Shown here piece by piece: positions 25,322-44,445 of a stretch of DNA of 64,000 bases (the first letter of the stretch is position 1; the number at the start of each line of letters is the position of its first letter). Made by a program: the position numbers and the translations under genes. The notes below the pieces were generated by a model. That model was not told the origin of the DNA. It ran no database searches and worked only from the letters and a program-made list of their open reading frames with translations. The DNA is from Pirellulales bacterium (GTDB taxonomy: Bacteria; Planctomycetota; Planctomycetia; Pirellulales; PALSA-1355), in the NCBI GenBank assembly GCA_963733035.1, contig CAVTBU010000007.1:64001-128000 (forward strand), given 5' to 3'.

Positions 25322-26380
25322 ATGGCGGATAAGAAGAAGATGTCCGTGGCCGAGATTCTGGCCGCGGCGCGAAAAGCCGATGCAGGCGGCGAGGCCGCTG
25401 CCAGCGAGCCACCTCCGGAAGCGGCAGCGCCCGCGGAAGCTGCCAGCGAGGCTCCGGCCTCGAAGCCGGCAGCAAAGCCCGCTGCCAAGTCCGGCGGAGC
25501 GCGGCCAAGTGTTGCCGAAATGATGGCGGCCGCACGAGCCGAAAAGAGCGGCGCCGCCAAACCCGCTGCTGCCAAGCCGGCTGCCCCGAAGGCCGCTGCG
25601 CCAGCGAAGAAGGAATCGCCTGCTCCCAAGGCGGCACCCGCCAAAAAAGAGCCGGTCGCGGCCGCCGCCGCCGAGCCCAAAGACACAGGCAGTATTTTGG
25701 CTGCGGCCCGCAGTGCGCATAAGCCGGGCCCCATGTCGAAGGCCGAGGCTGCCGCCAAGGCGCCGGCCGCCGCCCCTGCGGCCAAAGCCGCGAAGGCGAA
25801 AATCGCCGTCCCGCCGATGCCAGTGAAGCCCGCCTATGCCAAGCCGAAGCCCAAGCCGGTGGTGAGCGAGGGTCGGCGTAACTTTCTGATCGACGTGATG
25901 TTCGGATCGTTTCTTGGGGCGGGATTCGTCTTTTTGTCAGCGACCTTTGGTCTCTGGACGCTGGCCACGGCCCGCTTCATGTTCCCCAATGTGCTGATGG
26001 AGCCGCCCAGTAAGTTCAAGGTCGGCTTCCCCAGTAACTTCGCGCCGGGCCAGGTGGAAACCAAGTTCATCGCCCAATACGGCGTGTGGATTGTCAATTA
26101 CGAGTACAACGGTCAGCCCGAGATTTACGCGTTGCGGTCGGTCTGCACGCACCTGGGCTGCACGCCCAACTGGTTGGAGGGGGAGCAGAAGTTCAAGTGC
26201 CCCTGCCACGGTAGCGGTTTCTACAAAGACGGCATTAACTTCGAAGGTCCCGCGCCGCGGCCCCTCGAGCGTTATGCCATCCGCATTGCCGACGACGGCC
26301 AGTTGGAAGTCGACAAGAGTAAGCTCTTTCAGGAAGAAATCGGGCAGTGGAGCGATCCTGCTTCCTACGTCGCGGTCTAA
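25322..26380 (+). CDS. petC: Rieske 2Fe-2S subunit with a long Ala/Pro/Lys-rich N-terminal extension
   Basis: CTHLGC and CPCHGS boxes, GPAPRPL; internal GRRNFL twin-arginine motif followed by a TM helix. Confidence 0.95.
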   Translation: MADKKKMSVAEILAAARKADAGGEAAASEPPPEAAAPAEAASEAPASKPAAKPAAKSGGARPSVAEMMAAARAEKSGAAKPAAAKPAAPKAAAPAKKESPAPKAAPAKKEPVAAAAAEPKDTGSILAAARSAHKPGPMSKAEAAAKAPAAAPAAKAAKAKIAVPPMPVKPAYAKPKPKPVVSEGRRNFLIDVMFGSFLGAGFVFLSATFGLWTLATARFMFPNVLMEPPSKFKVGFPSNFAPGQVETKFIAQYGVWIVNYEYNGQPEIYALRSVCTHLGCTPNWLEGEQKFKCPCHGSGFYKDGINFEGPAPRPLERYAIRIADDGQLEVDKSKLFQEEIGQWSDPASYVAV

Positions 26381-26581
26381 GTCTGGGAGGCTGTCGTCCC
26401 GGCCGCGTGAGTTGCTGCGCTTTGGGGAAGTCCGCCGCGAGTTGCCAGTCCTCGTGGTCCGTGTGTCATGGCCGTCGAGTATGTGCGGGCTCCCGGCACG
26501 ATTCGAAGCGCGATGTGTCTGATCGATCAAGCCGGTGAAGCAAGGTTTCAATTTCAGATTTCAAAGGCGCGGTAGCAAACG

Positions 26582-27355
26582 ATGTCCATAGGTGAAATGA
26601 TCCGCGAGTCGCAGGTGTGGAAGAGCGTCTTCCGCCACCCCATGCCGCAGGATCGCCGCAATCGCATTGTGGTGATGCTGACGAACTTCTTCCTGCACTT
26701 GCATCCCGTCTCGATCAAAAAGCAGGGTATCGCCCTCAGCTACACCTGGTGCATGGGCGGCGTGACCTTCTTTCTGTTTCTGGTTGAAACGGTCACCGGC
26801 GTGCTGTTGATGTTCTACTACCGGCCGACGCTGGAGTGGGCCTACAACGATATTTTGGCACTGCGCGACGTGACGTCACTGGGCATCTTGCGCGAGGTGC
26901 ATCGCTGGGGGGCCCATGCGATGGTGATCACCGTCTGGCTGCATATGTATCGCGTGTTCTTGACCGGCAGCTACAAGCCGCCCCGCGAATTCAACTGGGT
27001 TATCGGCGTCATTCTGCTCTTGCTGACGCTGTTGCTCTCCTTTACCGGCTACCTACTCCCCTGGGACCAGCTCGCCATCTGGGCGATCACGGTGGGTTCG
27101 AACATGGCGCGGGCCACGCCCATTTTGGGGCACGAAGGGCCGGGTCAGCAGTTGTTGAATATTCAAGGGATCGACATGATTACGAACGCCTCCGACGCGC
27201 GGTTTGCCCTGTTGGGTGCGCGCTTCGTCGGCGAAGAGACGTTGAATCGGTTCTACATCCTGCACTGTATTGCAATTCCGCTGGGCGTGGCGCTACTGCT
27301 AGCGATCCACTTTTGGCGGGTGCGCAAGGATGGCGGCATCAGCGGTCCGCTGTAG
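26582..27355 (+). CDS. petB: Cytochrome b6
   Basis: WCMGG; His pairs HRW...LH and LH...[13 protein letters not shown]-terminal GISGPL. Confidence 0.95.
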
Positions 27356-27438
27356 CCGGCTTCCCAGGCGGCCGATCGAGCCGGGTTTGTCATTGGTAGC
27401 CAGTTGATATTCGGGGCGACTCAACGAGCGAAGTCACT

Positions 27439-28761
27439 ATGCACGGTGTATCGGAAGCCGATTTTCTGAGGGGAATTTCCCCGTTCCTGGGCGGATACTA
27501 CTTGTCTCTGGCCCTTGCGAACGCCGTCATGGCCTACCACATGTGGCACAATCGCCATCGCAACCGCGATGCGATCGTGTGGGTGGCCGTGACCCTGTTT
27601 TTGGTGACCATCGCGGCCGCCGCGATGGGTGGCAACCCGCCGGAATTGCCGGCGGCATTTCACCATTTTGCCAACTGGGCGACCGGGCCTGTGATCTACA
27701 GCGTTGGCACCACGGTTCTCTTAGTGCTGGCCTACGTGCTTCGCGGCTGGCTCGTGCGGCCGATGGTCGGTTGGTCGCTCCTGAATCTCTCGCTCATTTC
27801 GCTCGGTTTTTCGATGGCCGAGCCGAACTTCGCGGCCATCGTCACCAAGCCGGACAATGTACCGATCGTGGGGCTCGTGTTCCTGTTGGGTTTCTTCACC
27901 TGGCTGGCCACCGGCAAGGCAGTGGAAAATGACCGCCGCGATCGGGAAGGTCTGCCACCCGCCGAAAAGCTTGACGACGAGAAGGTGCTGGTTTGGCCTG
28001 ACTTGGTCTATACCGAGCTCATCTGCATGGTGGCCCTGACGGCCTTCCTGTTGATCTGGGCCATCGCCCTCCAAGCTCCTCTCGAGGAACCGGCTTCGAG
28101 CGTCAAGACGCCCAACCCGTCGAAGGCTCCCTGGTACTTCCTCGGTCTGCAGGAAATGCTGGTCTATTACGATCCCTGGATGGCCGGCGTGGTGCTGCCG
28201 AGCCTGGTGCTGGTGGGGCTGGCCGCGATTCCTTATTTGGATTTCAACAAGCGCGGCAACGGCTACTACACAATCAATCAGCGCAAGTTTGCCTACCTGG
28301 TTTTCCAGTTCGGCTTTTTGGAGCTGTGGGTCACGCTGATCATTCTCGGTACGTTCTTCCGCGGTCCGAACTGGAACATTTTCGGGCCGTTCGAGTATTG
28401 GGACCCGCACAAGGTGCTTGCACTGAACAACGTCGATCTGTCGCAGTACTTTTGGATCTCCTGGCTCGGACAGTCGCTGCCCAAGGCGCCGCCAAACGCA
28501 TCGCTGTTTGTCGAGATCGGAACGATTCTCAAGCGCGAATGGTTGGGTATCGTGCTGGTGGGGGCGTACTTCGTCGTCTTGCCTCCGATCCTGGCCACCA
28601 CGATCTTCCGCAACTTTTTTGCCCGGATGGGATTTATCCGTTTCATGTTGATGGCGAACCTGCTGCTGTTCATGGCCGCCTTGCCGCTGAAGATGGTGCT
28701 CCGCTGGACGCTGAACATGAAGTACATCATTTCCATCCCCGAATTCTTCCTGAACTTTTAA
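27439..28761 (+). CDS. petD: Extended subunit IV (PetD-like) of the Rieske/cytb complex
   Basis: VWPDLVYTE, TPNPSKAPWYFL and IPYLD, plus extra TM helices at both ends. Confidence 0.8.
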   Translation: MHGVSEADFLRGISPFLGGYYLSLALANAVMAYHMWHNRHRNRDAIVWVAVTLFLVTIAAAAMGGNPPELPAAFHHFANWATGPVIYSVGTTVLLVLAYVLRGWLVRPMVGWSLLNLSLISLGFSMAEPNFAAIVTKPDNVPIVGLVFLLGFFTWLATGKAVENDRRDREGLPPAEKLDDEKVLVWPDLVYTELICMVALTAFLLIWAIALQAPLEEPASSVKTPNPSKAPWYFLGLQEMLVYYDPWMAGVVLPSLVLVGLAAIPYLDFNKRGNGYYTINQRKFAYLVFQFGFLELWVTLIILGTFFRGPNWNIFGPFEYWDPHKVLALNNVDLSQYFWISWLGQSLPKAPPNASLFVEIGTILKREWLGIVLVGAYFVVLPPILATTIFRNFFARMGFIRFMLMANLLLFMAALPLKMVLRWTLNMKYIISIPEFFLNF

Positions 28762-28806
28762 TCTCCACGCATTGAAGACGCGCGACGCAGGCGCGAGATA
28801 TCGACC

Positions 28807-31800
28807 ATGCCCGCTACCGAACAAACTTGGCGCGACTCCAAGCTGCTGCATCTGGTCTTCGGCATCACCGCCTTGCTGATGCTCGTTTCCACGGTCTGGA
28901 TGCTGGCCGCGGACCATCGCCGCGAGTGGAAAGTCTACCAGAACAGATTCCGCAACATCGAAGCCTGGTCGGCCCAATCGCGCCTGAGCCAGCAGCAAAG
29001 CGCTCAGTTCGAAAGCGAAGTCAGCGAAGCCCACGAGGCGTTGGCCAAGGCCCAGCACGAAGTGCCGCCGCCGGATCTGATCAATCGCTTTACCGCTCGC
29101 GTGCGCCAGCAGGCTGAAGAGCACAAAGAGCAAGCCAATACCGCGCCGGTCGACGACGCATACAAGGCGCTGCAGAGTGCTCCGGAAGAACAGCGACCCG
29201 AGCGCCGCGATCAACTGAATGAGGCTCTGGGTGAATTCGTGGGTGTTGCGCGTTTTCAGGAAAACAAGTTAGCGTCGCATCAAGAAATTCCGCCTTGGCC
29301 GAGTTTGACGTCGCCCGCAGCGAATACGAGCTCGGCGTTGGCAACGACTTGCCGCAAGTCGCAACTGCAGGCGATGCAGGAGAAAGTCACGGAGATTCGC
29401 GAGCGCGTCGAATCAGCGAATCTCGAACTGCAGGACGTGGCCGCCTATCGGCGAGACTTGGAAGGTCTGGTCGCCCAGATGTTCCAGTCCCAGACCGACG
29501 CCCGCAAGCAACTCGACGACCTGCTGGTCAAACGCAAGCAACTGGAAGAGGCTTTGTACGAGCGTGAAACCAAGGTCATGAACGAGGTGATCGGGTTGCC
29601 GATCATCGACGCCTTCTCGCCCAAGAAGATCGACCAGATTTGGCTGCCGAACCTCACGATCAATTACAACTTTCGCGACGTGCCCCGTTTCGACCGCTGC
29701 ACGAACTGCCACCAGGGCATCGACCGCACGGCCCCCGGTTCAGCCGTCGACCCCGCCTACCCGCACGAACATATCGTGACGGTCAGCCTGGAAACGCCGT
29801 CGGAGCGGCCCGAGGGGCTCGACAAGGAGCCGGAAAAAGGGATCACGGTCGAACGGCATTTGAACAACCTGATTCAGGAAATCTATGGATTGCAGTTGGC
29901 CCAGCAGGGGCTGGTCGATCCGGACGAAGCCGTGGTCAGCGTGGTCCGGCCCGAGACGCCGGCGGCCAAGGCCGGAATGATCGTGTCCGACGCCATCATT
30001 TCCGTCGACGGCACGAAGCTCCTCGACAAGGACGACGTCTACAACTACCTGCTCGAGACGGTCCAGTGGGGACAGCCGCTCGAGCTTACGTTGCGACGCG
30101 GCCTGCCAAACCCGTTCGCCAGCCATCCTCGGCTCGACCTGTTCGTGGGCTCGCTCAGCCCGCACACATTGCAGAATGTCGGTTGCACAATTTGTCACGA
30201 CGGGCAGGGGAGCGCCACGGCCTTCAAGTGGGCGTCGCACGCGCCGAACGATCCGCTCGAGGCGGAAGATTGGAAGCGCGAGTACGGCTGGTTCGACAAC
30301 CATCACTGGATCTTTCCGATGTACCCCAACCGGTTCTCGGAAAGCCTGTGCTTGAAGTGTCATCACGACGTCGTGGAATTGCAGCCCAGCAAGCGGTTCC
30401 CCGACCCACCGGCGCCGAAGCTCGTGGAGGGCTTCAATCTGATCAAGGACGTGGGCTGCTTCGGCTGCCACGAAATCAACGGTTTCGACGGCCCCAACCG
30501 CCGCATCGGTCCCGACCTGCGGGCCGAGCCGAACTACTCGCCGGCCGCCCAAGCGCTGCTGGCCACCGGCGATTTGACCGAACAGCAGCAAGCGTGGGCT
30601 CGTCAGGTCGTCAAGGAACCCGAGCAGCCGGCTCCGCGGCACTCGCTGACCGAGTCGCTCGACAATGCCGACAAATTGCCTGGCGATCCGACGATGGCCA
30701 AGCGATGGATTAGCGTGTTGGCCGACGTCGAAACGCCGGGCAAACTCCGCAAGGTTGGTCCCAGCCTGCGTCACGTGGCGAGCAAGCTCGACTTCGACTT
30801 TCTGTATTCCTGGATTCGCAAGCCAAGTGACTTCCGGCCCTCGACCAAGATGCCGCAATTTTTCGGTCTGTGGTCGGCCCTCGACGAGCACAGTCTGGAA
30901 ATCTCCGAGAAGTTCGAGCCGATCGAAATTCGCGGCATCGCCGAATACCTGCTGAGCGGTAGCCAGCCGTTCGAGTACGCCGTTCCGCCCGCCGAAGTGA
31001 AGGCGGCGCCGTCGGCCGAGCGGGGCAAGCACGCTTTTGAAATCCGCTGTCTGGCTTGTCACAAACACGACGCCTTCCCGGCCGGCAAGATGACCCAGGG
31101 TCCGGACCTCTCGAAGCTGGGTTCGAAACTGGGTGGCCAAGACAACCCGAACGGACCGAAGTGGCTCTACTCGTGGCTCCGCAATCCGAGTTCGTACCAT
31201 CCGCGGACGCTAATGCCCAACATGATCCTCACGCCGGTCACCACGGTGACCGACCCGGCCAAGCCCGAGGGTGAGTTGACCGATCCCGCGGCCGACATCG
31301 CGGCCTTCTTGCTCGACAGCAAGGGCTGGGAACCGACCAACGTTCCTTCGCGTGAGCTGACCAAGGAAGAATCCGAGGCGCTCGAAGCCCTGGCACTTGA
31401 GAACCTGCAAAACACGTTCTCCCGCCATCAGGCCGAGGAGTATCTCAACAGCGGCATTCCCGAGGACTTGCGCGACGAGTTGAAAGGCGACGAGGTCGAG
31501 CTGGTTGGCGAGATGACCGTGGAGAAGAAACTCCGCTACGTCGGACGCCGCTCGATCAGCAAGTACGGTTGCTCCGGCTGCCACGACATTCCGAACTTCG
31601 AAGACGTCAAGCCGATCGGCACCGGCCTGGCCGACTGGGCTCGCAAGACGCCCGACAAGCTGGCCTTCGAGCAGATCGTCGAATACATGAAGCAGGGGCA
31701 CGGCACGCCGGGCGCTCTGCACTACAGCCAGGAATACAGTGAGCACGAAACGGTCGCCGAAGAAGACAAGGCCATCGAGGAGACCGAAACAAGCGGTCAC

Positions 31801-33239
31801 GGCCACTCGTTCAATTTCCTGAACATGGACCCGACCATGGGTTACTTCATGGAAAAGTTGGTCGGCCATCAGCGCGAGGGCTTCATCTGGCAGAAGCTCC
31901 GCGAGCCGCGTAGCTACGACTACAAGAAGACCCGCAACAAGAGCTACAACGAGCGGCTGCGGATGCCGCAGTTCACCGTGCTCGACGACCCTCAGCGTGA
32001 GGCAGTGATCACGTTCGTGCTGGGATTGGTGGCCGAGCCGCCGGCAGAGCAATACATCTACAAGGGAGATGCTCGTCGCCAGGCGATCATCGCCGGCAAC
32101 GAGATCATCGAGAAGTACAACTGCACGGGCTGCCACACGCTCGAAATGGAGCGGTGGGACCTGGCTTTCGACCCTGAGACCTTCGGCGAGCCCGCGCCGG
32201 TCGACGATTACAATTTCCTCCAGGCACACTTCACGCCGCAGGACATCGAAGCTTCGGAAAAAGTGGATGCGGCGGGCAAGCAGCACGCTACCGTCGTGGG
32301 CATGCCGGCCATGAACGACCAGGGGCAGCCGGTTCGCGTCGATGAAGATGGCGCCCCGCTTGATCCGGAAGACACCGAGACGCCGGCTTCCTACGTGTTC
32401 ACGCCGTGGGAGAATGTGCTGCTGGGCGGTCAAACCTGGCAGGCGGGCTTGCAAAACATTCTGATTCCCGAGGCGGTCATCAAGAAACGCTACGAGCCGG
32501 TGGGCGGTTTCCTTGCCCGGCTGGCTTTCCCGGTAGTGATCGCCAACGAGCGTGTGACGAACCCCAATGCCAAGGCGGACGAAGCCTGGGGCTGGCTGCC
32601 GCCGCCGCTCAAGGGCGAGGGTCGCAAGGTGCAGACCGAATGGCTGCACAGCTTCCTGCTCGATCCGCACATGATCCGCCCGGCCGCCGTGTTGCGGATG
32701 CCGAAATTCAACATGTCGAGTGACGAAGCGACGAAGTTGGTGAATTATTTCGCGGCAGTCGACGGCGTCGACTATCCCTACGATTTCGACCCGCGGACGC
32801 GCGAATCGCACTTGCGCAAGAGGAGATGCAGCACCCCAAACGGCTCAACGATGCGATGAACATCGTCACCGACAACAACTTCTGCATCAAGTGCCACTTG
32901 CTGGGCGACTTCGCGCCCAAGGGATATGATTCGGCGAAGGCGCCGCAGTTGGGCAATGTCTACCGGCGGCTGCGTCCGGAATTCACGACGGACTGGATCG
33001 CCAACCCCAAGCGAATCTTGCCGTATACCGGCATGCCGGTGAACATTCCACCCGGCAAGCCGATTAGCGAGCAATTGTACAAGGGCAACAGCGTCCAGCA
33101 GCTCGATGCGGTCGTCGACCTGCTGCTAAACTACGACCGATTCATGGAAAGCAAGACCTCGATCCTACCGTACATCAAGCCGCAAGCTCCGGCCGCCGAA
33201 CAGCAGGCGGCGGGCGCAACCCAAGACGCGGCGCAATAG
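28807..33239 (+). CDS. Membrane-anchored multiheme cytochrome c (8 CxxCH) with a PDZ-like domain; frameshifts near 29280-29355 and 32815
   Basis: CTNCH, CTICH, CLKCH, CFGCH, CLACH, CSGCH and CTGCH in 28807..32859; CIKCH in 32826..33239; N-terminal TM helix. Confidence 0.9.
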
Positions 33240-33255
33240 AGGAGGGAACACCACG

Positions 33256-34209
33256 ATGACTCACACGACGCGCTTTACTTTCGCGGCGGTTCTGCTGGCA
33301 CTGCTTGTTGGCGTTTATGGTTGCGGTCAGTCGGCCTCACCGCCGCCGGGGGCTCCCGACGAGGCCGAAGCCCCCACCGTCGATCAAGGCCACGAGGAAT
33401 CGGCCGAAGCCGAACATGCTGATCACGAGCACGCCGCTGACGAGTCGGCGCCCCAGGGCGATGCGGCCGCGGAGACCACTGAAGAAACCAAGACCGCCGC
33501 TGCCGATGGTGACTGGGGCACGCTCACCGGCCGCATCATTTACGACGGCAAGGCGCCCGCGCCACAGCCGATCGACACGTCCAAAGATCCCAATTGCAAG
33601 ACCAAGCTGGAGACGGAAAACCTGCTCGTCGGTCCCGACGGTGGTCTGGCCAACGCCGTGATCATGCTCCGCACCAAAAACGTGAAGGTGAATCCGGAGT
33701 ACGACGCGACGGCCAAGGATGAGATCACGCTGGACAATAGGAATTGCCGTTTCGAACCCCACGTCGAAATTGTGCGGCTGTCGCAAACGCTGCTGCTCAA
33801 GAACTCCGACCCCACGGGGCACAACAGCAACCTCTCGCCGTTACTCAACACGGCGATCAACCCTGTGCTGGCCGCCGGTGGCGAGCCGGTTCCTTACCAC
33901 TTCACGACCGAGGAAGCCATTCCGGTCAAGGTGGGCTGCAATATCCATCCCTGGATGGGCGCTTGGATCGTAGCCCGCAAGGATCCCTACGCCGCAGTGA
34001 CCGACAAGGACGGCAATTTCACGATCAAGGATCTGCCGGCGGGCAAGGAATTGGAGTTTCGCCTCTGGCAGGAGTCGGCAGGCTATCTCAAGAACGCCAA
34101 GTTCAAGGCGGGCAAGACGGATACCCGCGGCACTTTCAAAATCAAGATCAAGCCGGGCAAAAACGACCTCGGCGACATCAAAGTTCCCAGCTCGATCTTT
34201 AAGAAGTAA
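33256..34209 (+). CDS. Lipoprotein with a putative type-1 copper (cupredoxin) site
   Basis: Lipobox VYGC; DPTGHN and CNIHPWM; GAGGAGG RBS. Confidence 0.75.
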   Translation: MTHTTRFTFAAVLLALLVGVYGCGQSASPPPGAPDEAEAPTVDQGHEESAEAEHADHEHAADESAPQGDAAAETTEETKTAAADGDWGTLTGRIIYDGKAPAPQPIDTSKDPNCKTKLETENLLVGPDGGLANAVIMLRTKNVKVNPEYDATAKDEITLDNRNCRFEPHVEIVRLSQTLLLKNSDPTGHNSNLSPLLNTAINPVLAAGGEPVPYHFTTEEAIPVKVGCNIHPWMGAWIVARKDPYAAVTDKDGNFTIKDLPAGKELEFRLWQESAGYLKNAKFKAGKTDTRGTFKIKIKPGKNDLGDIKVPSSIFKK

Positions 34210-34263
34210 GTCGGCCGCGTGCCGTCCCGCGCGGGGCGGCGTTGGCCAGAGGAGATAACTCCG

Positions 34264-35166: not shown

Positions 35167-35284
35167 CAGCGCTACACTCAGAACAACGACCATGTGCCGG
35201 TCGCGCGATCGCGAGCGGCAACAAATAAGAAACCGCTTCACAACTACGCCGTTATAGACGCCGGCACACGTGCCGGTTTTCGCC

Positions 35285-36538
35285 ATGAATTGGAACCCCG
35301 CAAACTCCGTGCGATTTTGGCCCTGTCTGGCTTTGTTGGCCCTGCTGGCCGGCTGCGGGCGCAACGCGCCGCCGCAATTCAAGCTCGACATGGTGGCCAT
35401 CGCCGAAAAGCAGATTCCGCCAGATCAGACGCAAGAGATCGCCAACATTCTGGCGGCCATGTTTGGCACCCCGGACGACCCCTACGTGCTGCCCGAGACG
35501 GGCCTGGACGCGGCGCTCGTGAAGATGGCCTCCGGACCCACGCGGAGTGATCAGTTCGGCCGCGAGACGGGACTTTATCGTCGGCACTGTGCCCACTGTC
35601 ATGGCACGACCGGCGACGGCCTGGGCCCCACGGCCATGTTGCTAAACCCCTATCCGCGCGACTATCGCCAGGGCAAATTCAAGTTCAAGAGCACCGAGCG
35701 GGCGGCCAAGCCCACGCAGCACGACCTAGAGTACATCGTCAGCGAGGGCGTGCAGGGGACGGCCATGCCGTCGTTTGGTCTATTGCCCGAGATGCAGATC
35801 AAGGCGCTTGTCGAATACGTCAAGTATTTGAGCATGCGGGGCCAAACCGAGATTCGGTTGTCCGACGCGATGCTTGATCTGAGCGAAGGCGAGAAGCTGC
35901 CGCTGACGCGCGAACAGTTGGTCGACGAGATTCTGACGCCGATCGCTGAAAGCTGGAGCACGGCCACCGAGAACATCATTCCCACCGATGGCGACAACGC
36001 GAAGCCGGAAGTGCAGTTGGCCGAATCGATCAAGCACGGCAAGGACCTGTTCTACAGCGCCAAAGCCAACTGCGCGAAGTGTCACGGTTGGAGCGCCTTG
36101 GGAGACGGCCAGACGAACGACTACGACGACTGGAGCAAGGCGATTGTCGAAGCGGAAGGCAACTTGACGGCCGACATTTCCACGCTCGACACGGCTGAGG
36201 ATATGTCGAGCGAGGAACGCGCGGTGCTGGCCCGCCATATCGACCGGCTGTCGTCGGCGCTAAAGACCGATGCCTTGCCGCCACGCCACGCCAAGCCGCG
36301 AAACCTGCGGCAGGGAATCTACCGTGGAGGCCGGGCACCTTACGATATCTACCGCCGCATCTACGCCGGCATCAATGGCACGCCGATGCCGGCCGCCGGG
36401 CCGCCCACGCCAGGGGCACCGGGCACGCTCAGCAACGACGAAATTTGGAATCTCGTGGATTACGTATTGTCGCTCCCCTATGAGCCGATCAGCGAACCGC
36501 CGCGTCAGCAGCGGGCCGTAAGTCGGGCCGCGTTGTAA
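35285..36538 (+). CDS. Diheme cytochrome c lipoprotein
   Basis: Lipobox LAGC; CAHCH...GTAMP and CAKCH...GTPMP (His/Met ligation). Confidence 0.9.
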   Translation: MNWNPANSVRFWPCLALLALLAGCGRNAPPQFKLDMVAIAEKQIPPDQTQEIANILAAMFGTPDDPYVLPETGLDAALVKMASGPTRSDQFGRETGLYRRHCAHCHGTTGDGLGPTAMLLNPYPRDYRQGKFKFKSTERAAKPTQHDLEYIVSEGVQGTAMPSFGLLPEMQIKALVEYVKYLSMRGQTEIRLSDAMLDLSEGEKLPLTREQLVDEILTPIAESWSTATENIIPTDGDNAKPEVQLAESIKHGKDLFYSAKANCAKCHGWSALGDGQTNDYDDWSKAIVEAEGNLTADISTLDTAEDMSSEERAVLARHIDRLSSALKTDALPPRHAKPRNLRQGIYRGGRAPYDIYRRIYAGINGTPMPAAGPPTPGAPGTLSNDEIWNLVDYVLSLPYEPISEPPRQQRAVSRAAL

Positions 36539-36620
36539 CACCAAAAGGTACTGTCCGAGTCAATTCCGCCGCATTGCCAAAAGCATCATGCGGCAGAGCC
36601 GTCAGGCTGGAGAACGAGCC

Positions 36621-37436
36621 GTGGGAAAGTTTTGGGCTTTTGTGTTTCTGCTGGTACCCGTATTGGGCGTGGCCAGCTTTGTCTTCGCGCCCGTGTACAA
36701 GCACTGGTTGCCGGAGGACATTTCGCAGCACGGCCACACGATCGACCACTTGTTCTATTTCATTCTCTGGCTCACCGGCGTGGTCTTCGTGGTCACGGAG
36801 TTGGCTCTGTTCTGGTTCCTCTGGCGCTACGACGGCACGAAGGACCACAAGGTCGCCTACACCCATGGCAGCCACAGTCTGGAAATCATCTGGACGATCA
36901 TTCCGGCGGCCACGCTGCTGTTCATTGCGATTTATCAGATGAACGCCTGGGCCGAAGCTAAGATTCGCAACCCGGCCGCCGGACCCGATGGCATCTTGGG
37001 CACGGCCGACGACATGCCGCCCACGCTGGAGGTGACCGGCCGGCAATTCGAATGGCGGTTGCGATACCCGGGCAGTAATGGCGTGCTGGGCGATCAGGAC
37101 GATATTTTCGTCGTAAACGACCTGCATTTGCCGGTCAACGAGGAGATTCTGATCGAGCTGAAAAGCGCCGACGTGCTGCACAGCTTTTTCCTGCCCAACA
37201 TGCGGGTCAAGCAAGACGCGGTGCCCGGCATGAAGATTCCGGTTTGGTTCCGGGCCACCGAAAAGGGGACGTACGACATCGTCTGTGCGGAGCTTTGCGG
37301 TTGGGGACATTATAAAATGAAAGGCCGGCTCACCATCGAATCGCGTGAAGATTTCGAGGAGTGGCTGGACAAAAAATATCGCGAGCAGACGGCAACCGTC
37401 GACTCGCAGGCGTTGGCACAGGGGGAGAGTGAATGA
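36621..37436 (+). CDS. coxB: Cytochrome c oxidase subunit II
   Basis: LEIIWTIIP, GRQFEW, DVLHSF and CuA motif CAELCGWGHYKM; GTG start. Confidence 0.95.
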   Translation: MGKFWAFVFLLVPVLGVASFVFAPVYKHWLPEDISQHGHTIDHLFYFILWLTGVVFVVTELALFWFLWRYDGTKDHKVAYTHGSHSLEIIWTIIPAATLLFIAIYQMNAWAEAKIRNPAAGPDGILGTADDMPPTLEVTGRQFEWRLRYPGSNGVLGDQDDIFVVNDLHLPVNEEILIELKSADVLHSFFLPNMRVKQDAVPGMKIPVWFRATEKGTYDIVCAELCGWGHYKMKGRLTIESREDFEEWLDKKYREQTATVDSQALAQGESE

Positions 37437-39220
37437 GCTCGATCACCGCAGGTTCTCACGCACACGACGACCATGCCGCTCACGCGCATGCGGGCGGATT
37501 CCTTGGCACCTATGTGTTTTCCAGGGATCACAAGATCATTGGACTTCAGTTTTTGTTTTCCACGCTGATCTGGTTTCTGATCGGCGGGCTGCTGGCCCTT
37601 GGCATTCGCTGGCAAGTGGCCTGGCCCTGGGCCGAAATGCCGGTCATCGGCAAGATGCTATTTGCCAACGAAGGCGGCCAGATCTCGCCGGAGTTCTACA
37701 CGATTTTGTTCACCATGCATGCCACGGTGATGATCTTTTTCGTGATCATCCCGATTTTGGCCGGCGCGTTCGGCAACTACCTGATCCCGCTGATGATCGG
37801 TGCCGACGACATGGCGTTCCCAACGCTGAACATGCTCAGCTACTGGTTCATGTGGCCGGCGTTCGTGGCCATTGGAGGCAGCTTTTTCGTCGAAGGAGGT
37901 GCCGCCAAATCGGGCTGGACCTCCTATCCTCCGCTTTCACTGACGGACTGGAACGGCCAAACGCTCTGGCTGATGGGCCTCACGTTCGTCGGCGTCTCTT
38001 CGATGATGGGGTCGGTCAACTACATGACCACCATCATTCAGATGCGGGCGCCCGGCATGACGATGTTCCGTCTGCCGATGACGATTTGGGCCATGTTCAT
38101 CACGGCCATCTTGCAAGCGTTTGCACTGCCGGTCCTCACGGCGGCCGGTTTCATGCAACTTATGGACCGCCTGCTCGGCACCGGCTTCTTCATTCCCGAA
38201 GGCTGGTCAGCCGGCAATTCCGCCCTGGCCTCGGGCGGCGGTCAGCCGCTGCTCTGGCAGCACCTGTTCTGGTTTTATTCCCACCCGGCCGTGTACATCA
38301 TGATTCTGCCCGCCATGGGAATGGTCTCCGACATCATCGCCTGCTTCTCACGCAAGCCGCTGTTCGGATACAAGCCGATGGTCTATTCGATTGCGGGGAT
38401 CGCCGGGTTGGGCTTTATCGTCTGGGGTCACCACATGTTTGTCTCGGGCATGAACCCCGCGCTGGGCATGACGTTCATGATTTCGACGATGATGATTGCC
38501 TTGCCTAGTGCCATTAAGACCTTCAATTGGCTGGGCACGGTTTGGGGAGGCAACGTTCGCTTCACCACGCCGATGCTTTTCGCCCTGTCGTTCGTCGCGA
38601 TGTTCATCATCGGTGGATTGTCTGGCATCTTCATGGCCGCCACGCCGGTCGACATCTTCATTCACGACACCTATTTCATTGTGGCCCACTTCCATTACGT
38701 GCTGTTTGCCGGCACGGCGATGGGCGTGTTCGGCGCGATCTACTTCTGGTATCCGAAAATGTTCGGCCGCATGATGAACGAAACGGCCGGGAAGATTCAC
38801 TTCTTCCTGACGTTCCTGTTCCTCAACGGCACGTTCTTCACGATGCACATCCTGGGCGTTGTCGGTTTCCCGCGCCGCCTGGCCGATCCGTATCACTATC
38901 AGACGTTCCATCACTTGCAGCCGCTCAACGAATTCATGACGTGGTGTGCGATTGGCATGGTCGGCGTGCAGGTGATCTTCGCGGCCAATTTCCTGCTGAG
39001 CATGTTTCTGGGGCCCAAGGCTGGCCGCAATCCGTGGCACTCCAACGGCCTGGAATGGCAGGCGCCTAGCCCGCCAGGGCACGGCAACTTCGACTTCCAG
39101 CCGGTGATCTACCGGGGACCCTACGAATACAACTCGCCCGAGGCAGGCAAGGACTACTACCCGCAGAACGAGCCGCCCCCGGGAGCTCACCCCGAGCCGC
39201 CCTCGCCGCCGATCTACTAA
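37433..39220 (+). CDS. coxA: Cytochrome c oxidase subunit I, A2 type
   Basis: DHKIIG, TMHAT, WFYSHPAVY, WGHHMF, HDTYFIVAHFHY, PRR. Confidence 0.97.
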   Translation: MSSITAGSHAHDDHAAHAHAGGFLGTYVFSRDHKIIGLQFLFSTLIWFLIGGLLALGIRWQVAWPWAEMPVIGKMLFANEGGQISPEFYTILFTMHATVMIFFVIIPILAGAFGNYLIPLMIGADDMAFPTLNMLSYWFMWPAFVAIGGSFFVEGGAAKSGWTSYPPLSLTDWNGQTLWLMGLTFVGVSSMMGSVNYMTTIIQMRAPGMTMFRLPMTIWAMFITAILQAFALPVLTAAGFMQLMDRLLGTGFFIPEGWSAGNSALASGGGQPLLWQHLFWFYSHPAVYIMILPAMGMVSDIIACFSRKPLFGYKPMVYSIAGIAGLGFIVWGHHMFVSGMNPALGMTFMISTMMIALPSAIKTFNWLGTVWGGNVRFTTPMLFALSFVAMFIIGGLSGIFMAATPVDIFIHDTYFIVAHFHYVLFAGTAMGVFGAIYFWYPKMFGRMMNETAGKIHFFLTFLFLNGTFFTMHILGVVGFPRRLADPYHYQTFHHLQPLNEFMTWCAIGMVGVQVIFAANFLLSMFLGPKAGRNPWHSNGLEWQAPSPPGHGNFDFQPVIYRGPYEYNSPEAGKDYYPQNEPPPGAHPEPPSPPIY

Positions 39221-39265
39221 TCCGAGTCGAATCGCCCGACGAACCTCCTTGATCGCTGAGCAATC

Positions 39266-40306
39266 GTGAACCAAACGCCACGCCAAGTTGAAAGCCCCTG
39301 GCCCCATCGCTGGGCCGTGGCCTTGGTCTGCGCCACGTTCCCGATGATCTGGATCGGCGGGCTGGTGACCACCGCGGGCGCCGGCATGGCCGTGCCCGAC
39401 TGGCCCAACACCTACGGTTACAACCCGTTCCTTTATCCCTTGGATACCTGGCTGTACGGACCTTGGAAGTTGTTCATCGAGCACGGCCATCGGTTGTTTG
39501 GCACGTTGGTGGGCATGATCACGATTGGCTTTTTGATTTCCACCTGGTGGTGCCAACGACGCACGTTGGTTCGCTGGCTGGGCGCCGCGGCGCTGGCGGG
39601 CGTGCTGCTGCAAGGCGTGCTTGGCGGACTGCGCGTGTTGGCCAACGAAGTGTTGATTGCCCAGATTCACGGTTGCGTCGGTCCGGCGTTTTTTGCATTC
39701 ACCGTGGCTTTGGCCGTGGTGACTTCGAAGCGCTGGCGCGAGGCCGAGCCGGTGGCCAACCCAGTGGTCGCAAAGATCGAACGCCTTGCATTGATCATCA
39801 CCTTCCTCGCATTTTTGCAGATCGTTCTCGGCTCGCAGCTGCGGCACCTGCCAGCCGGCGCACGGCCCGGAGAATTCCGCCTGGCCCTGTTCTTTCATCT
39901 GTTTGTGGCCGGAGCGCTGTGGGGGCACATCGTGATGCTCGCGGTGCGCGTTTGGCGTTCGATGCGAGATGAGCCCTGGCTGCTGCGGCCCGCGATTGGC
40001 CTGTCGGTGCTGATCGTGCTGCAAGTTTGCCTGGGGCTGGGAACCTGGGTTACCAAATACGGCTTTCCCGGCTGGCTGTCGGGATTCGACTTCGCCGCAG
40101 GGTTTCGGCCCACGGCCGACGCGCCCTGGCAAATGGCCTCGGCAACGGCGCACGTGGCCATCGGCTCGATGATTTTGGGAAACAGCCTGCTATTGGCGCT
40201 CCGTTCGGCGCGTCTGGTGGTCCGTCAGGCAGGCGTAATGAACACACAAACGCATCGTGTGCAAAACGAAAACGGCCATACCTTGCTGATGGAGGCCGCC
40301 CGATGA
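39266..40306 (+). CDS. ctaA: Heme A synthase (COX15/CtaA)
   Basis: GGLVT...PDWP, IEHGHR, QGVLGG and further conserved His residues. Confidence 0.9.
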   Translation: MNQTPRQVESPWPHRWAVALVCATFPMIWIGGLVTTAGAGMAVPDWPNTYGYNPFLYPLDTWLYGPWKLFIEHGHRLFGTLVGMITIGFLISTWWCQRRTLVRWLGAAALAGVLLQGVLGGLRVLANEVLIAQIHGCVGPAFFAFTVALAVVTSKRWREAEPVANPVVAKIERLALIITFLAFLQIVLGSQLRHLPAGARPGEFRLALFFHLFVAGALWGHIVMLAVRVWRSMRDEPWLLRPAIGLSVLIVLQVCLGLGTWVTKYGFPGWLSGFDFAAGFRPTADAPWQMASATAHVAIGSMILGNSLLLALRSARLVVRQAGVMNTQTHRVQNENGHTLLMEAAR

Positions 40307-41202
40307 GTATGCCTTCGTTGGCCATCGACCGCCGCACGAACCTGCTCGCGCGCGTGGCCGATTATGTTGAGCTTACGAAACCCAAGATCGCCGCGCTTGT
40401 GCTGGTGACCGTGGCCGTGGCGGCGTTTGTTGCCAGCTGGGGTCCGCCAAGCGGCTGGCTGCTCTGGCACACGCTGTTGGGCACCGCGCTGGTCGCCGCC
40501 AGTGCGAGCGCGCTGAACCAATGGCTCGAGCGCGACACCGATGCGTTGATGATTCGCACGGCCGATCGCCCGTTGCCAGCCGGTCGGCTATCGAACGGTC
40601 AGGTGCTGGCATTTGGCTTCGCGACGATCGTGCTGGGCACGGCCTACCTGGCCACCAGCGTCAGCCTGCTCACTGCGGCCTTGGGGCTGCTAACCTGGGC
40701 GATGTATGTGGTTGTTTACACACCGCTCAAACGCCGCACGGCCGCCAACACCGCCGTGGGGGCCGTCGCCGGCGCGCTGCCGGTCTTGATGGGCTGGACC
40801 GCCGTCGGTGCGCCGCTCGATTTGCGGGCCTGGTCGCTGTTCCTGATCGTCTTCTTGTGGCAGTTTCCGCATTTCATGGCCATCGCCTGGATCTATCGCC
40901 GCGATTACGACGGCGCCGGCCTGAAAATGCTTAGCACGGTCGATCCGAGCGGCGTGCGCGCGGGCACGCAGGCCATTTTGGCGGCAATGGTTTTAGTGCC
41001 GGTCAGCATCGTGCCGTGTTTGTCTCAGCCGGCCGGAAGCATCTTTCTGGTGTGGGCCCTGGTGTTGGGCGTGGGACAGTTGCTGTGCGCGTTTTCTTTC
41101 TTCCTGCAAAAAACCGATTCGGCGGCGCGGCGCTTGTTACTGGCGTCGCTCTTGTACTTGCCCGCCATGATGGGGCTGTTGGCCCTGGGGCCATTGGCCT
41201 GA
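40303..41202 (+). CDS. ctaB: Heme O synthase
   Basis: [38 protein letters not shown]. Confidence 0.95.
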
Positions 41203-41251
41203 TGAAACATTTGCGAATGATCGTGTCTTAGAAAGGTTGGATGAGCAAACG

Positions 41252-42241
41252 ATGGCCACGACCCATGCACCCGCCGAACACGCTGATCACGGCCACGTCG
41301 GATTGGAATACCATCCGGGCTTGCCGATTTCCAACGGCAAGTTGATCGTATGGCTGTTCTTGTCGACGGAAATCATGTTCTTCGCCGCGCTGATTGGCAC
41401 TTATATCGTGCTGCGGTTCGGTGCAGCGACTTGGCCCTTACCGCACGAAGTTCACCTCAGCGAACCGATCGGGGCGTTCAACACGTTCGTGCTGATCTGT
41501 TCTAGCGTCTCGATTGTGCTGGCTCTCGAAGCAGCAAAGGTCAATAAAGCGGCCGCGGCCAAGGGCTGGCTGCTGGTGACGCTCGCCTTGGGGAGCGTGT
41601 TTTTGGGGGTCAAACTGTACGAATACAACGCCAAGTTTTCGCACGGCATCTATCCCTGGAAGCCGCACAGCCAGATCTGGGAAAAGGCCGACTTGAACTA
41701 TGCCGCGGCCGTACGCGGGCGGCTCGACGCGCTCAATGCCGGGTTCGAGACAGAGAATTCCGCACTGACCGAAAAGTATGCCGACAACCCTGAATCGCTC
41801 GAGAAAGATCCCGCCGCCGTCGCATTGCGAGAAAAGCAGGCGCTGGTTGCCAAGCTGATCGAAGAGGAGAAAGCGGCCGAGATCGCCGCGGCTCAGGCAA
41901 CGAATGTCGCCGTGGCTCACGCCGCATTGGACGAACTGGCCGAAAAGATCATGCCTCTGGGGCACGCTCCCGGCGAGGAGCCGCACCATGGGCTTAACGA
42001 CCAGCACGCCTGGCTCCGCCTGCCGATCGTGATTCCGGGCGGCAACATGTGGGCGAGCACCTACTTTCTGCTCACCGGTTTTCATGCCATCCACGTGCTA
42101 GTGGGGCTGATCGTGTTCGCCATCATGATCCCGATGACCCTGGGCGTGATGGCGACCGGCTTCGTCGAGAACATCGGCCTGTATTGGCACTTTGTCGATT
42201 TGGTGTGGATCTTCCTGTTCCCGCTGCTGTATCTGTTCTAG
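41252..42241 (+). CDS. coxC: Cytochrome c oxidase subunit III with a large soluble insertion
   Basis: [32 protein letters not shown]. Confidence 0.92.
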
Positions 42242-42293
42242 TCCTTTACCCGATTCCTTTGCATTCAAGCCGCTCGAGCGGAGTAACTCAGCC

Positions 42294-42752
42294 ATGTCGC
42301 AACCCGGTCACAGCCACGCCCACGACGCCGACCACGGCCACGATGTGGGGATCGCCAAATACATCTACGTTTTCCTCGCGCTTTGCGTGCTGACCGGGGC
42401 GTCGTTCTTCACGTATTCGTCGTACTGGCCGTTTCACGCCCAGCCCAAGATCGGTTGGGCTTTCATGATGGCCGTCTCGTGCACCAAGGCAATGCTTGTG
42501 ATTTTGTTTTTCATGCACGTGAAGTACGAGGCGAATTGGAAATACGTACTTACGATTCCGGCCGGATTCATGGCGACCTTTCTGGTGCTGGCACTGGTGC
42601 CGGATATCGGCATGCGGGGGCACTGGCTTTCGGAAGAGCGCCGTTTGTACATGGCCGAGCCTCGCGATGCCGCCGCTGCGCCGGTCGTGCACCACGGCGA
42701 AGCCGATTCGCACGGGGATGCCGAACATTCCGCCCCGGCATCCGAACACTAG
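42294..42752 (+). CDS. Cytochrome c oxidase subunit IV
   Basis: YIYVFLALCVLT and KAMLVILFFMHVKYE. Confidence 0.85.
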   Translation: MSQPGHSHAHDADHGHDVGIAKYIYVFLALCVLTGASFFTYSSYWPFHAQPKIGWAFMMAVSCTKAMLVILFFMHVKYEANWKYVLTIPAGFMATFLVLALVPDIGMRGHWLSEERRLYMAEPRDAAAAPVVHHGEADSHGDAEHSAPASEH

Positions 42753-42887
42753 GGTGCGCCACGAACGATCGACGACCGTCTCGGCGGCGTAAACATAAAA
42801 AGAGTCGCTTGCTCGAGTTGCCTGCGTGCAGACACCGCGGTCGTCCGTCTGCTGGCATTCCGAGGACCTCCGCCCGGGATTTGCAAA

Positions 42888-43622
42888 ATGAAACCTTCGG
42901 CCGCCACCTATTGGGTCGTGCTCGTCGCATTGCTTGCCGCGATTTACGGTTCATACACACTCTGGCGAACGTCCCGAGACACCGAGCCGTCCGCGCCGGC
43001 CCGCACTTCAACAGCTCGCAATGCGACTGCGAGTCCCGCGACCACGGCGATCTTGTCCGACAGTCCGATTGCCCAGTTCAAGCTGATCGACCAGGACGGC
43101 AACCCGTTCGATTCGGCCAGCCTTGAAGGCGAGGTTTGGGTGGCAAGTTTCTTTTTCACCAACTGTCCGGCCATCTGCTGGCGGATGAATCAGGCCCTGG
43201 CTGCCTGGCAGCACACGCATCCCGACAGCAAGATCCGCTTCATCAGCATTACCTGCGATCCAGACAACGATACGCCCGAAGCGCTGAAGAAATATGCCGA
43301 GCACTTCAAGGCCGATCCCAGGCGGTGGACCTTTCTCACCGGTGACATGAAAGACATCCAGAGCGTCGGCCAGGAATCGTTCAAAATCGCCGTTGTTAAA
43401 GGGGACCACACGGATCGGGCCTGCGTCGTCGACCGCACCGGCAAGGTTCGCGGACGCTTCCGGCTGACGGAGCCCGATCAGGCGGAAATGCTCGACCGGC
43501 TGCTGACCATGGTCGAGGCCGAGCCGGCCCTCCCACCGGCCGTCGAACACAAGGCTGCAGAGCATGTCGAGCGACCGGCCGACGATTCGTCCGCCGGCGC
43601 GCCGGATTCCGAAAAAAGCTGA
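42888..43622 (+). CDS. SCO1/SenC copper chaperone
   Basis: FFTNCPAIC, ITCDPDNDTPEAL, WTFLTG and His in GDHT. Confidence 0.92.
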   Translation: MKPSAATYWVVLVALLAAIYGSYTLWRTSRDTEPSAPARTSTARNATASPATTAILSDSPIAQFKLIDQDGNPFDSASLEGEVWVASFFFTNCPAICWRMNQALAAWQHTHPDSKIRFISITCDPDNDTPEALKKYAEHFKADPRRWTFLTGDMKDIQSVGQESFKIAVVKGDHTDRACVVDRTGKVRGRFRLTEPDQAEMLDRLLTMVEAEPALPPAVEHKAAEHVERPADDSSAGAPDSEKS

Positions 43623-43642
43623 CCCGTCCGAGACCCCACGCC

Positions 43643-44149
43643 GTGAACTTCAGCGTCGAGCAATTGCCCGCGGTCAACGCGACGCTGAACGGCGTCGCGG
43701 CGGTGCTACTGGTCGTCGGCTGGGCACTCATCAAGCAACGGCGCGAGCGGGCGCACAGGAACACGATGCTGGCCGCCTTTGCGGTCTCCGTGGTCTTTTT
43801 GGTCTGCTATCTGGTGTACCACTACCAGGTGGGCAGCGTGAAGTTCGCGGGCCCCAGCGGCGTGCGTGCCGTGTATTTGTCGATTCTGTTTAGCCACATC
43901 GTCCTGGCCGCCACGGTGCCGATTTTGGCCCTGATCACAATTTACCTGGGGTTGAAGGATCGGCGCGCAAGACATCGTCAATTTGCCCGCTGGACTTTTC
44001 CGATATGGTTATACGTATCCGTAACGGGGGTGGTCATTTACGTGATGTTGTATCACCTCTACCCACCGACCGAAGAGGCACTTATAATGAGGGCGTCGCC
44101 AGCCCCGGTGCAAAACGCACTCGGCAGCGACGGAGAGACAACGCCATGA
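43643..44149 (+). CDS. DUF420 (YozB/CtaM-like) membrane protein
   Basis: LPAVNATLN, HIVLA, WLYVSVTGVVIY. Confidence 0.9.
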   Translation: MNFSVEQLPAVNATLNGVAAVLLVVGWALIKQRRERAHRNTMLAAFAVSVVFLVCYLVYHYQVGSVKFAGPSGVRAVYLSILFSHIVLAATVPILALITIYLGLKDRRARHRQFARWTFPIWLYVSVTGVVIYVMLYHLYPPTEEALIMRASPAPVQNALGSDGETTP

Positions 44150-44445
44150 AAACACCCCGCAAGACAATCCGATTCGCTCGTCTGTTTGTGCCCGCCGTTG
44201 CCGCGGCCTTGGTGTTGGGCGTTGCATCGGCGGCCTTGGCCTGCCCAAGTTGCCAGGCGGCGCTCGGCGGCGACAAGTCGCAAGGCGATTTAGTGACGGG
44301 GCTCTTCTATAGCATCCTGTTCATGATGTCGATGCCCTTTGCGATCGTGGGCACGTTCGGCACGTTGGCCTATCGCGCCGTAAAGCGTGAACAGCGCCGT
44401 CAAGCGGCTCAGAAGGCCGAACGAGAAGCGGGCCAAGACGTCTAA
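44146..44445 (+). CDS. Small exported CxxC membrane protein
   Basis: Signal peptide ending ALA-CPSC, one TM helix; ATGA overlap with DUF420. Confidence 0.7.
   Translation: MKTPRKTIRFARLFVPAVAAALVLGVASAALACPSCQAALGGDKSQGDLVTGLFYSILFMMSMPFAIVGTFGTLAYRAVKREQRRQAAQKAEREAGQDV

Follow-up and report, generated by a model that had tools for sequence, protein, structure and literature searches.

How are electrons carried from quinol to O2 by a respiratory gene cluster that encodes neither cytochrome c1 nor cytochrome f? This question is raised by positions 25313-44445 of a 64,000-nucleotide (nt) stretch of DNA from a Pirellulales bacterium of the Planctomycetota (assembly GCA_963733035.1, contig CAVTBU010000007.1, positions 64,001 to 128,000), the whole of which is called the window here. 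Genes for a Rieske/cytochrome b complex, an octahaem cytochrome c, two putative blue-copper lipoproteins, a dihaem cytochrome c and an aa3 oxidase are found there side by side. We know of no biochemical study of the aerobic respiratory chain of planctomycetes, though these bacteria are abundant in soils and waters. An initial annotation made from the sequence of the window proposed that the products form a hard-wired supercomplex of respiratory complexes III and IV. In this study, the cluster was analysed with respect to its protein families, predicted structures, conservation and likeness to known systems. We consider it likely that the cluster encodes one co-regulated quinol-to-O2 branch comprising a b6-type complex, membrane-tethered carriers and an aa3 oxidase. 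The membrane quinol is probably menaquinol.

A total of 16 genes were found in the cluster, all of them on the + strand of the window, and the lists of open reading frames (ORFs) showed the opposite strand to be gene-free between them. Their order, assigned with Pfam and NCBIfam, is Rieske, b6, subunit IV, octahaem c, Cu1, Cu2, dihaem c, CoxII, CoxI, CtaA, CtaB, CoxIII, CoxIV, SCO1, DUF420 and a small membrane protein, Cu1 and Cu2 being the two putative blue-copper lipoproteins. The genes are spaced by 201 nt or less, with 4-nt overlaps at three junctions (CoxII/CoxI, CtaA/CtaB and DUF420/last gene), and a promoter and terminator scan placed no terminator-like site inside any intergenic gap of the cluster. 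The same scan counted 2 promoter-like sites where 4.6 +/- 2.2 were expected, with a consensus that may not suit planctomycete promoters, and 29 terminator-like sites where 20.2 +/- 4.4 were expected. No cytochrome c1 or cytochrome f family was matched by any cluster product (Pfam, E <= 0.01). The annotated picture of 16 co-oriented genes leading from quinol oxidation to O2 reduction with neither c1 nor f is thus borne out by the ORFs, Pfam and NCBIfam, and within the cluster the octahaem, blue-copper and dihaem proteins would take the place of soluble cytochrome c as well.

The quinol-oxidising half is encoded by the first three genes. Cytochrome b6 (26582-27355, 257 aa) is of the four-helix short form (PF00033, 136.9 bits). 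An enlarged subunit IV (27439-28761, 440 aa) was found to match PF00032 with 24.3 bits over residues 218-295 and to have about 8 hydrophobic segments by hydropathy instead of three. PF00033 and PF00032 lie on separate genes, which is the split cytochrome b of b6f-type ('green clade') complexes. When read in translation, b6 has haem ligands spaced as His-x13-His in helix B and His-x14-His in helix D, and its CMGG fits CxGG, the haem cn motif; a helix D spacing of 14 residues is the mark of the b6f type. Both the haem cn Cys and the helix D spacing of the 'green clade' are accordingly present, and the place of its cytochrome f is occupied by the octahaem gene. The CxGG motif has been remarked in planctomycetes (PMC5600118). 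By its Qo motif, APWY, subunit IV falls into Kao and Hunte's mixed 'APWY clade', Planctomycetes included (PMC4122944). The Rieske [2Fe-2S] subunit (25313-26380, 355 aa; PF00355, 40.1 bits) carries the boxes CTHLGC and CPCHGSGF. Under the Ser/Phe rule, as cited in a legend to a figure in PMC3509893, its cluster would have a potential near +200-230 mV. Its N-terminus consists of an Ala/Pro/Lys-rich low-complexity extension of about 185 aa (window 25313-25870), followed by a Tat-like RRNFL and one hydrophobic segment (residues 191-209); tblastn gave full-length Rieske matches in close relatives, and matches from residue ~185-218 only in distant ones. On its split cytochrome b, haem cn Cys motif and APWY Qo motif, the complex of the window is classified as a b6-type Rieske/cytochrome b complex.

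The third redox subunit, which is neither c1 nor f, is an octahaem cytochrome c that is predicted to be anchored in the membrane and to have a helical stalk as well as a PDZ domain. From the N-terminus it comprises a membrane helix, a helical region of about 220 aa, the PDZ domain, which scores above the Pfam cut-off (PF17820, 31.1 bits; PF13180, 29.3 bits), and 8 CXXCH motifs. A single N-terminal hydrophobic segment, residues 16-34 by hydropathy, is the anchor candidate. In an AlphaFold2 (AF2) model of residues 1-1200, the mean predicted local distance difference test score (pLDDT) was 59.6 and the predicted template modelling score was 0.32, too poor overall for a fold search; helices 5-262 and PDZ 320-432 (PDZ pLDDT 77-92) were the confident parts, and the remainder was low. 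All 8 CXXCH are invariant across 22 aligned homologues, and 8 were also counted in each of five distant homologues (1219-1699 aa). An invariant Met-Pro follows each of haems 4-8 in the 22-sequence alignment (five motifs), which suggests His/Met ligation of these haems, like that of class I cytochromes. When the octahaem alignment was used as a profile against the PDB, no solved whole-protein homologue was obtained. The matches were confined to PDZ domains and, weakly, to individual cytochrome c domains, with an E value of 1.2e-5 for the best of the cytochromes, and ActA (6btm_A) was matched weakly (E 0.0023 over 29 residues).

The octahaem gene (28807-33239) is present in the window as two ORFs in different frames, 28807-32859 (1350 aa, 7 CXXCH) and 32826-33239 (137 aa, 1 CXXCH), and the homologues are mostly single proteins of about 1435-1575 aa. 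The transmembrane-anchored 8-haem protein of the initial annotation therefore stands with respect to its 8 CXXCH and its hydrophobic segment, but not as one intact gene in the window. Comparison with the nearest homologues placed the frame break directly after ...RTRESHL. Contigs of four soil-metagenome runs were compared at the cluster, among which site 32813 was covered in two (X1 and X2, not X3 and X4). In both of these, which come from two studies, an extra G behind 32813 restores the frame (X1, 1 contig, depth 3.2 of 3.2; X2, 1 contig, depth 4.7 of 4.7). Since the G is present in contigs of two other runs, the split is a 1-nt deletion at 32813/32814 that is peculiar to the window assembly or strain, and is probably either an assembly error or a strain variant. 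A programmed frameshift was considered and rejected, because the missing G belongs to a GG pair and intact copies exist in the two other runs. A second broken gene was seen in the same assembly, a CoxI on contig C5, and this is consistent with assembly indels.

Directly behind the octahaem gene lie Cu1 (33256-34209) and Cu2 (34264-35166; the ORF opens with GTG at 34219 and the likely start is ATG 34264), which are paralogues of 300-317 aa with 36% identity. No Pfam cupredoxin family was matched by either window copy. The AF2 model of Cu1 (pLDDT 84.4) consists of a signal/anchor helix, a disordered linker reaching to about residue 85 (pLDDT below 60 at residues ~25-85) and two beta domains. When this model was compared with the PDB by Foldseek, amicyanin 2gb2 was the top match (E 2.4e-5) among 32 matches with E <= 0.001, and Nitrosopumilus cupredoxin, a Bacillus cupredoxin_1 protein, plastocyanins (E 7.6e-4 to 1.9e-3), pseudoazurins and CuA domains were found besides; template modelling scores normalised on the target were 0.55-0.74 for amicyanin, plastocyanin and pseudoazurin. 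The ligand set H189, C228, H231 and M234 (Cu1 numbering), in the pattern His...Cys-x2-His-x2-Met, is invariant in 34 aligned sequences, and the alignment gives Cu2 the same set. Cu1 thus has, as modelled, a cupredoxin fold and, as aligned, the ligand set of a type-1 site. Its C-terminal domain is weakly CarboxypepD_reg/Ig-like in Pfam (25.4 bits, below the cut-off), and a distant cupredoxin homologue at locus L089 passes Pfam Copper-bind (27.1 bits vs a cut-off of 21.2). For Cu1, a lipobox-like GCG is the consensus of 25 sequences, and for Cu2, G22-C23 is invariant in 23 sequences. As a result, the designation of Cu1 and Cu2 as twin blue-copper lipoproteins is supported for fold and ligands, and copper binding is predicted; the initial claim of two Cu-motif lipoproteins is upheld by fold, invariant ligands and lipobox Cys, though not by any Pfam cupredoxin match. 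In public records the proteins are labelled 'hypothetical', or 'plastocyanin' in some JGI records. An Atlas look-up of Cu1 returned planctomycete clusters with the automatic name 'putative methylamine utilization protein' (score 0.94), a lead only, which agrees with the amicyanin-like fold of Cu1. A complex prediction of Cu1 (86-317) with Cu2 (60-300), run with alignments and no controls, gave a score of 0.00 (mark 0.32), which weighs neither way on their binding.

The dihaem cytochrome c (35285-36538; the ORF opens at 35270) is a predicted lipoprotein with 2 CXXCH (PF00034, 69.5 bits; PF13442, 60.3 bits), and both CXXCH and a GC lipobox-like motif were found in 49 of 49 examined homologues. 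In its N-terminal haem domain it is similar to chain B of PDB 6H5L (E 4.4e-24), presumably the small partner cytochrome of Kuenenia HAO. The entry 6H5L is cited as the Kuenenia HAO structure (bioRxiv 10.64898/2026.07.28.741245). Anchor motifs can thus be assigned to all four intermediate carriers, namely the octahaem subunit, Cu1, Cu2 and the dihaem cytochrome, in agreement with the predicted membrane tethering of the initial annotation. The next gene encodes CoxII (36588-37436; COX2, 51.5 bits; TIGR02866, 159.1 bits vs a cut-off of 147.7), in whose translation the CuA ligands read H...CAELCGWGHYKM; no cytochrome c family was matched in it by Pfam. Since CoxII has CuA and no haem c domain, the oxidase is of the aa3 and not the caa3 type, and an external donor is needed. 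CoxI (37433-39220) is of the A-type haem-copper oxidases (PF00115, 502.7 bits), with the equivalog TIGR02891 as best match though below its cut-off (602.7 vs 670.75 bits). It is followed by CtaA, a haem A synthase (39266-40306; PF02628, 64.8 bits), CtaB, a haem O synthase (40303-41202, its likely ATG overlapping the CtaA end by 4 nt; UbiA/CtaB, 183.3 bits; TIGR01473, 262.7 vs a cut-off of 210.3), CoxIII (41237-42241; PF00510, 51.1 bits in two stretches) and CoxIV, the prokaryotic subunit IV (42294-42752; COX4_pro PF03626, 44.7 bits, cut-off 28.9). CoxI, CoxII with CuA, CoxIII, CoxIV and the haem A synthesis genes of an A-type aa3 oxidase are therefore all present. The two matching stretches of CoxIII are parted by an insert of about 130 aa between hydrophobic segments (window 41650-42050), hydrophilic and helix-like; the two halves are adjacent in the distant loci L086, L094 and L099, and the insert is thus lineage-specific.

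The conservation of this layout was analysed at two depths. Searches with the octahaem profile yielded about 2265 relatives with E <= 0.001, in at least 598 species genomes. The 80 best octahaem loci, from relatives recorded as Pirellulales or Planctomycetia, were taken as the close set, and all 80 are colinear with the window. The octahaem gene directly follows subunit IV in 76 of the 76 loci that reach upstream, and all 13 genes from Rieske to CoxIII are in identical order in 34 of the 34 loci with at least 3.6 kb upstream and at least 9 kb downstream. This synteny confirms that similar clusters occur in other planctomycetes, as had been expected. Two cupredoxin genes are present in 47 of 49 loci with sufficient downstream DNA, the other two having three and one, respectively. 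Across the phylum, the profile matched at least 251 of 401 genomes, a floor obtained under a stricter filter, and at least 162 of 244 high-quality ones, and 20 loci were cut from different families. Rieske, b6, subunit IV and octahaem genes occur together in 18 of these 20 loci, rearranged in one of the 18, and CoxII-CoxI is linked to them in seven (L081, L082, L084, L086, L094, L095 and L099); two loci end early at contig ends, and the remaining ones have unrelated genes after the module. In 12 of the 20 loci, the octahaem gene has a cupredoxin gene as a neighbour. All seven oxidase-linked loci have it between octahaem gene and CoxII, and in L088, L089, L091 and L097 it follows the octahaem gene with no adjacent oxidase gene. 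The bc-type complex with its octahaem subunit is therefore an independent, phylum-wide module, joined to a complete aa3 operon in some lineages, and a tethered cupredoxin is its usual companion. Because the cupredoxin is present in 7/7 linked loci and the dihaem gene is missing from 3/7, the comparison argues that the cupredoxin, and not the dihaem c, is the constant and essential connector to the oxidase.

Some further features of the distant loci were recorded. L083 (genome G330, from the order of the window) has Rieske, b6, subunit IV, octahaem, cupredoxin, dihaem, CtaA and CtaB genes, then URO-D and a PQQ-repeat protein; as it has no CoxII/CoxI, the oxidase structural genes are elsewhere or absent. 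In the unlinked loci L085 (8249-9634) and L089 (9717-11375), proteins with one or two PDZ domains are encoded right after the octahaem or cupredoxin genes, and PDZ modules are recurrent around the octahaem bc-type complex. An ORF of 460-488 aa with a GxGxSG dinucleotide-binding-like N-terminus lies between the octahaem and cupredoxin genes in L094 (8678-10060), L095 (9037-10488) and L099 (9861-11327).

An electron path can be proposed from this layout. Quinol would be oxidised at Qo of the b6-type complex, from which the first electron would pass through the Rieske cluster and the octahaem subunit to the tethered cupredoxin(s), then to the dihaem c where present, and onward through CuA and haem a to haem a3-CuB, while the second would reach Qi by way of the b haems and haem cn. 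Like plastocyanin with b6f, the cupredoxin would belong with the bc-type module, and the tethers would keep the carriers at the membrane.

Several points weigh against the cluster as one such branch. Operon status is deduced from gene spacing, the anchors of all carriers are deduced from motifs and hydropathy, and the type-1 copper site, haem ligation and carrier order are likewise read from sequence. The sequencing runs found to contain the stretch are 5 soil-metagenome DNA runs (shares 0.07-0.19), with no RNA run among them; 2 further runs of the same study, added to these, had a share of 0.00. The frameshift, if real in the strain, would remove the eighth haem domain. Four genomes of the same order or class (G190, G370, G070 and G173) gave weak octahaem-profile matches, with best E values from 2.8e-14 to 7.3e-5; in G190, G370 and G070 the matched ORFs are about 1400-1436 aa long and may encode a divergent analogue, whereas the match of G173 covers the PDZ range only, in a 544-aa frame. 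Finally, the genome has 5 COX1 loci and 3 cytochrome b genes, the window's included, and no bd oxidase match was obtained in it. A second III+IV cluster of another design is found on contig C5 at 698000-717000 (locus L101), with genes for a caa3 CoxII-c fusion, CoxI, CoxIII, a 678-aa c-type cytochrome, Rieske, a cytochrome b-c fusion and Caa3_CtaG, the CoxI being the one broken in two, by a frame change with TGA. With these other oxidase and cytochrome b routes, the branch of the window need not be the main one.

A stronger claim is that the products form a III-IV supercomplex that is both obligate and stable, with a fixed wire of 8 haems, 2 coppers and 2 haems running from the Rieske cluster to CuA. 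We regard this as possible, but would not put it at even chances. The invariant gene order in 34/34 close loci, the anchor motifs on every candidate donor and a CoxII that needs an external donor for want of its own haem c domain would all suit it, and the PDZ and long helical region of the octahaem subunit could serve assembly. Obligate supercomplexes are also known where free cytochrome c is lacking (PMC8361435). However, the oxidase is adjacent in only 7/20 sampled loci, so that the bc-type module is able to work separately, and lipid-anchored carriers on long disordered linkers such as residues ~25-85 of Cu1 resemble tethered mobile shuttles rather than fixed subunits. An obligate supercomplex would moreover leave no alternative electron route, and the genome offers several, in its 5 COX1 loci, 3 cytochrome b genes and second III+IV cluster. 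The module standing alone, the long disordered tethers and the alternative routes thus count against an obligate supercomplex, and the term 'hard-wired' of the initial annotation is weakened accordingly. A supercomplex remains a plausible and reasonable hypothesis with partial precedents in SoxM-sulfocyanin, actinobacterial bcc-aa3, ACIII-aa3 and b6f-plastocyanin. Its most specific form, that aa3 respiration of Pirellula-type planctomycetes runs through one fixed assembly of a b6-type dimer with stalked PDZ octahaem, two type-1 coppers, dihaem c and CuA, is regarded as slightly less probable. If true, no solved III-IV supercomplex would be like it, with its wire of 12 mixed haem and copper centres. 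For a soluble carrier, the enlarged, invaginated periplasm of these cells would mean dilution, and the fixed assembly could have arisen as an adaptation to it.

Less probable still is a reading in which the octahaem bc-type module serves several acceptors as a general electron hub of the periplasm, its adjacency to aa3 in the lineage of the window reflecting co-regulation only. Eight haems exceed the need of a III-to-IV link, at least 10 of the 20 sampled loci have the module alone with unrelated genes after it, and the related Kuenenia complexes have been proposed for other reactions (PMC12954380). Yet the order in the oxidase-linked lineages is fixed and tight, with gaps of about 200 nt or less, and a scan of 42 ORFs in 11 unlinked loci found no other terminal reductase gene beside the module. 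That Cu1 and Cu2 are copper-delivery or assembly factors for CuA/CuB and not electron carriers is very improbable: the cluster also has the assembly genes SCO1, CtaA, CtaB and DUF420 and cupredoxin-like folds occur among copper chaperones, but the invariant His...Cys-x2-His-x2-Met is the pattern of type-1 electron-transfer sites, amicyanin is the closest match in structure, the genes lie between octahaem and dihaem/CoxII genes and away from SCO1, and the four oxidase-free loci named above have a cupredoxin after the octahaem gene. Two further identities of the complex were rejected on its families: an alternative complex III (ACIII), as no ActB/ActC-type (molybdopterin-like, NrfD-like) family occurs among the 16 products, and a bc1 complex, on the Pfam families of the cluster products.

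The co-regulated branch of b6-type complex, tethered carriers and aa3 oxidase was then set beside known systems. The actinobacterial bcc-aa3 and the ACIII-aa3 supercomplexes had been named as its analogues at the outset, but the closest ones, the b6f-like complexes of anammox bacteria and the archaeal SoxM supercomplex, were missed; both are likened here by description. In Kuenenia stuttgartiensis, the b6 of the b6f-like complexes Kustd1480-1485 and Kuste4569-4574 has four helices, their subunit IV is enlarged, and cytochrome f is replaced by a cytochrome c with six or eight haems; one of these cytochromes is large, and its long helices wrap around the complex (PMC12954380). These complexes come from the same phylum. 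Like the window, they have an enlarged subunit IV, and a multihaem cytochrome c of 6-8 haems stands where f would be; the helical region 5-262 of the window octahaem parallels the long helices. They differ by an NAD(P) oxidoreductase subunit and, in one of them, by an octahaem enzyme like HAO, both of which are absent from the 16 window products, and in having no link to an aa3 oxidase or to cupredoxins. In the SoxM supercomplex of Sulfolobus acidocaldarius, the blue copper protein sulfocyanin stands between a bc1-analogous Rieske/cytochrome b unit and the oxidase, and halocyanin is an oxidase donor in Natronomonas (PMC3062577). A blue copper link is thus common to SoxM and the window, whereas SoxM is archaeal and has one copper protein, no multihaem c and other oxidase subunits.

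As proposed for the window, a split b6 with haem cn reduces a cupredoxin in the cyanobacterial and plastid b6f complex, and plastocyanin also feeds the cyanobacterial aa3 oxidase. Compared with b6f, the window has the octahaem subunit for cytochrome f, two cupredoxins that are putative lipoproteins with an Ig-like domain, probably menaquinol, and no photosynthesis. The actinobacterial bcc-aa3 is obligate, with a dihaem c between Rieske cluster and CuA and no free cytochrome c (PMC8361435). It is like the window in its associated complex III and IV genes and unlike it in its long-form cytochrome b and in having no copper proteins and no octahaem; its dihaem c is the QcrC subunit of complex III, whereas that of the window is a separate lipoprotein reaching 27.6 bits against a QcrC cut-off of 200. 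The ACIII-aa3 of Flavobacterium johnsoniae has a multihaem subunit and a lipid-anchored monohaem c, gene-linked and bound to aa3 (PMC8361435); unlike the window, ACIII is without Rieske or cytochrome b. The best named NCBIfam matches were cytochromes of the selenite/tellurite reduction operon, ExtP for b6 (257.7 bits), ExtQ for subunit IV (60.3 bits) and, weakly, ExtS for the octahaem subunit (35.3 bits), which are below the cut-offs of 290, 150 and 100, so that the window products are not members of these families.

Planctomycete sequences of cytochrome b or Rieske appear in general phylogenies (PMC3509893, PMC4122944 and PMC5600118), Planctomycetes are remarked to have COX operons together with an Nrf-like (ACIII) cluster (PMC4013037), and a genome note lists three bc1 clusters, ACIII and three oxidases for Lacipirellula (PMC6995999). 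The word Planctomycetes is absent from a 2021 review of III-IV supercomplexes (PMC8361435). In the passages searched, no description was found of the cluster, of its cupredoxins or, outside anammox bacteria, of the octahaem/PDZ subunit, which agrees with the initial remark that no biochemical description was known.

The cluster ends with three genes for SCO1/SenC copper chaperone (42888-43622; PF02630, 93.7 bits), a DUF420 membrane protein (43643-44149; PF04238, 159.2 bits) and a small membrane protein of 100 aa (44146-44445), for which ORF and hydropathy analysis gave two hydrophobic segments and a CPSC motif and Pfam gave no match. The flanking genes are unrelated or on the opposite strand: the minus strand upstream carries an ABC-2 gene and one resembling D-glutamate cyclase, and downstream lie a DUF983 gene (-), then a PQQ-repeat/TPR protein, MoxR and DUF58. 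The DUF983 gene (44442-44945, -) converges on the last cluster gene (44146-44445, +).

The analysis names the components of a b6-type complex that does without both cytochrome f and c1, and the comparison of genomes suggests a rule by which a tethered cupredoxin is the constant partner of the octahaem bc-type complex, like plastocyanin for b6f. If the products form one assembly, it would be a new supercomplex architecture; if they do not, the cluster would be a clear case of membrane-tethered shuttles in place of soluble cytochrome c. The findings are also relevant to how the 'green clade' Rieske/b complexes evolved and to the connection of these complexes with copper proteins.

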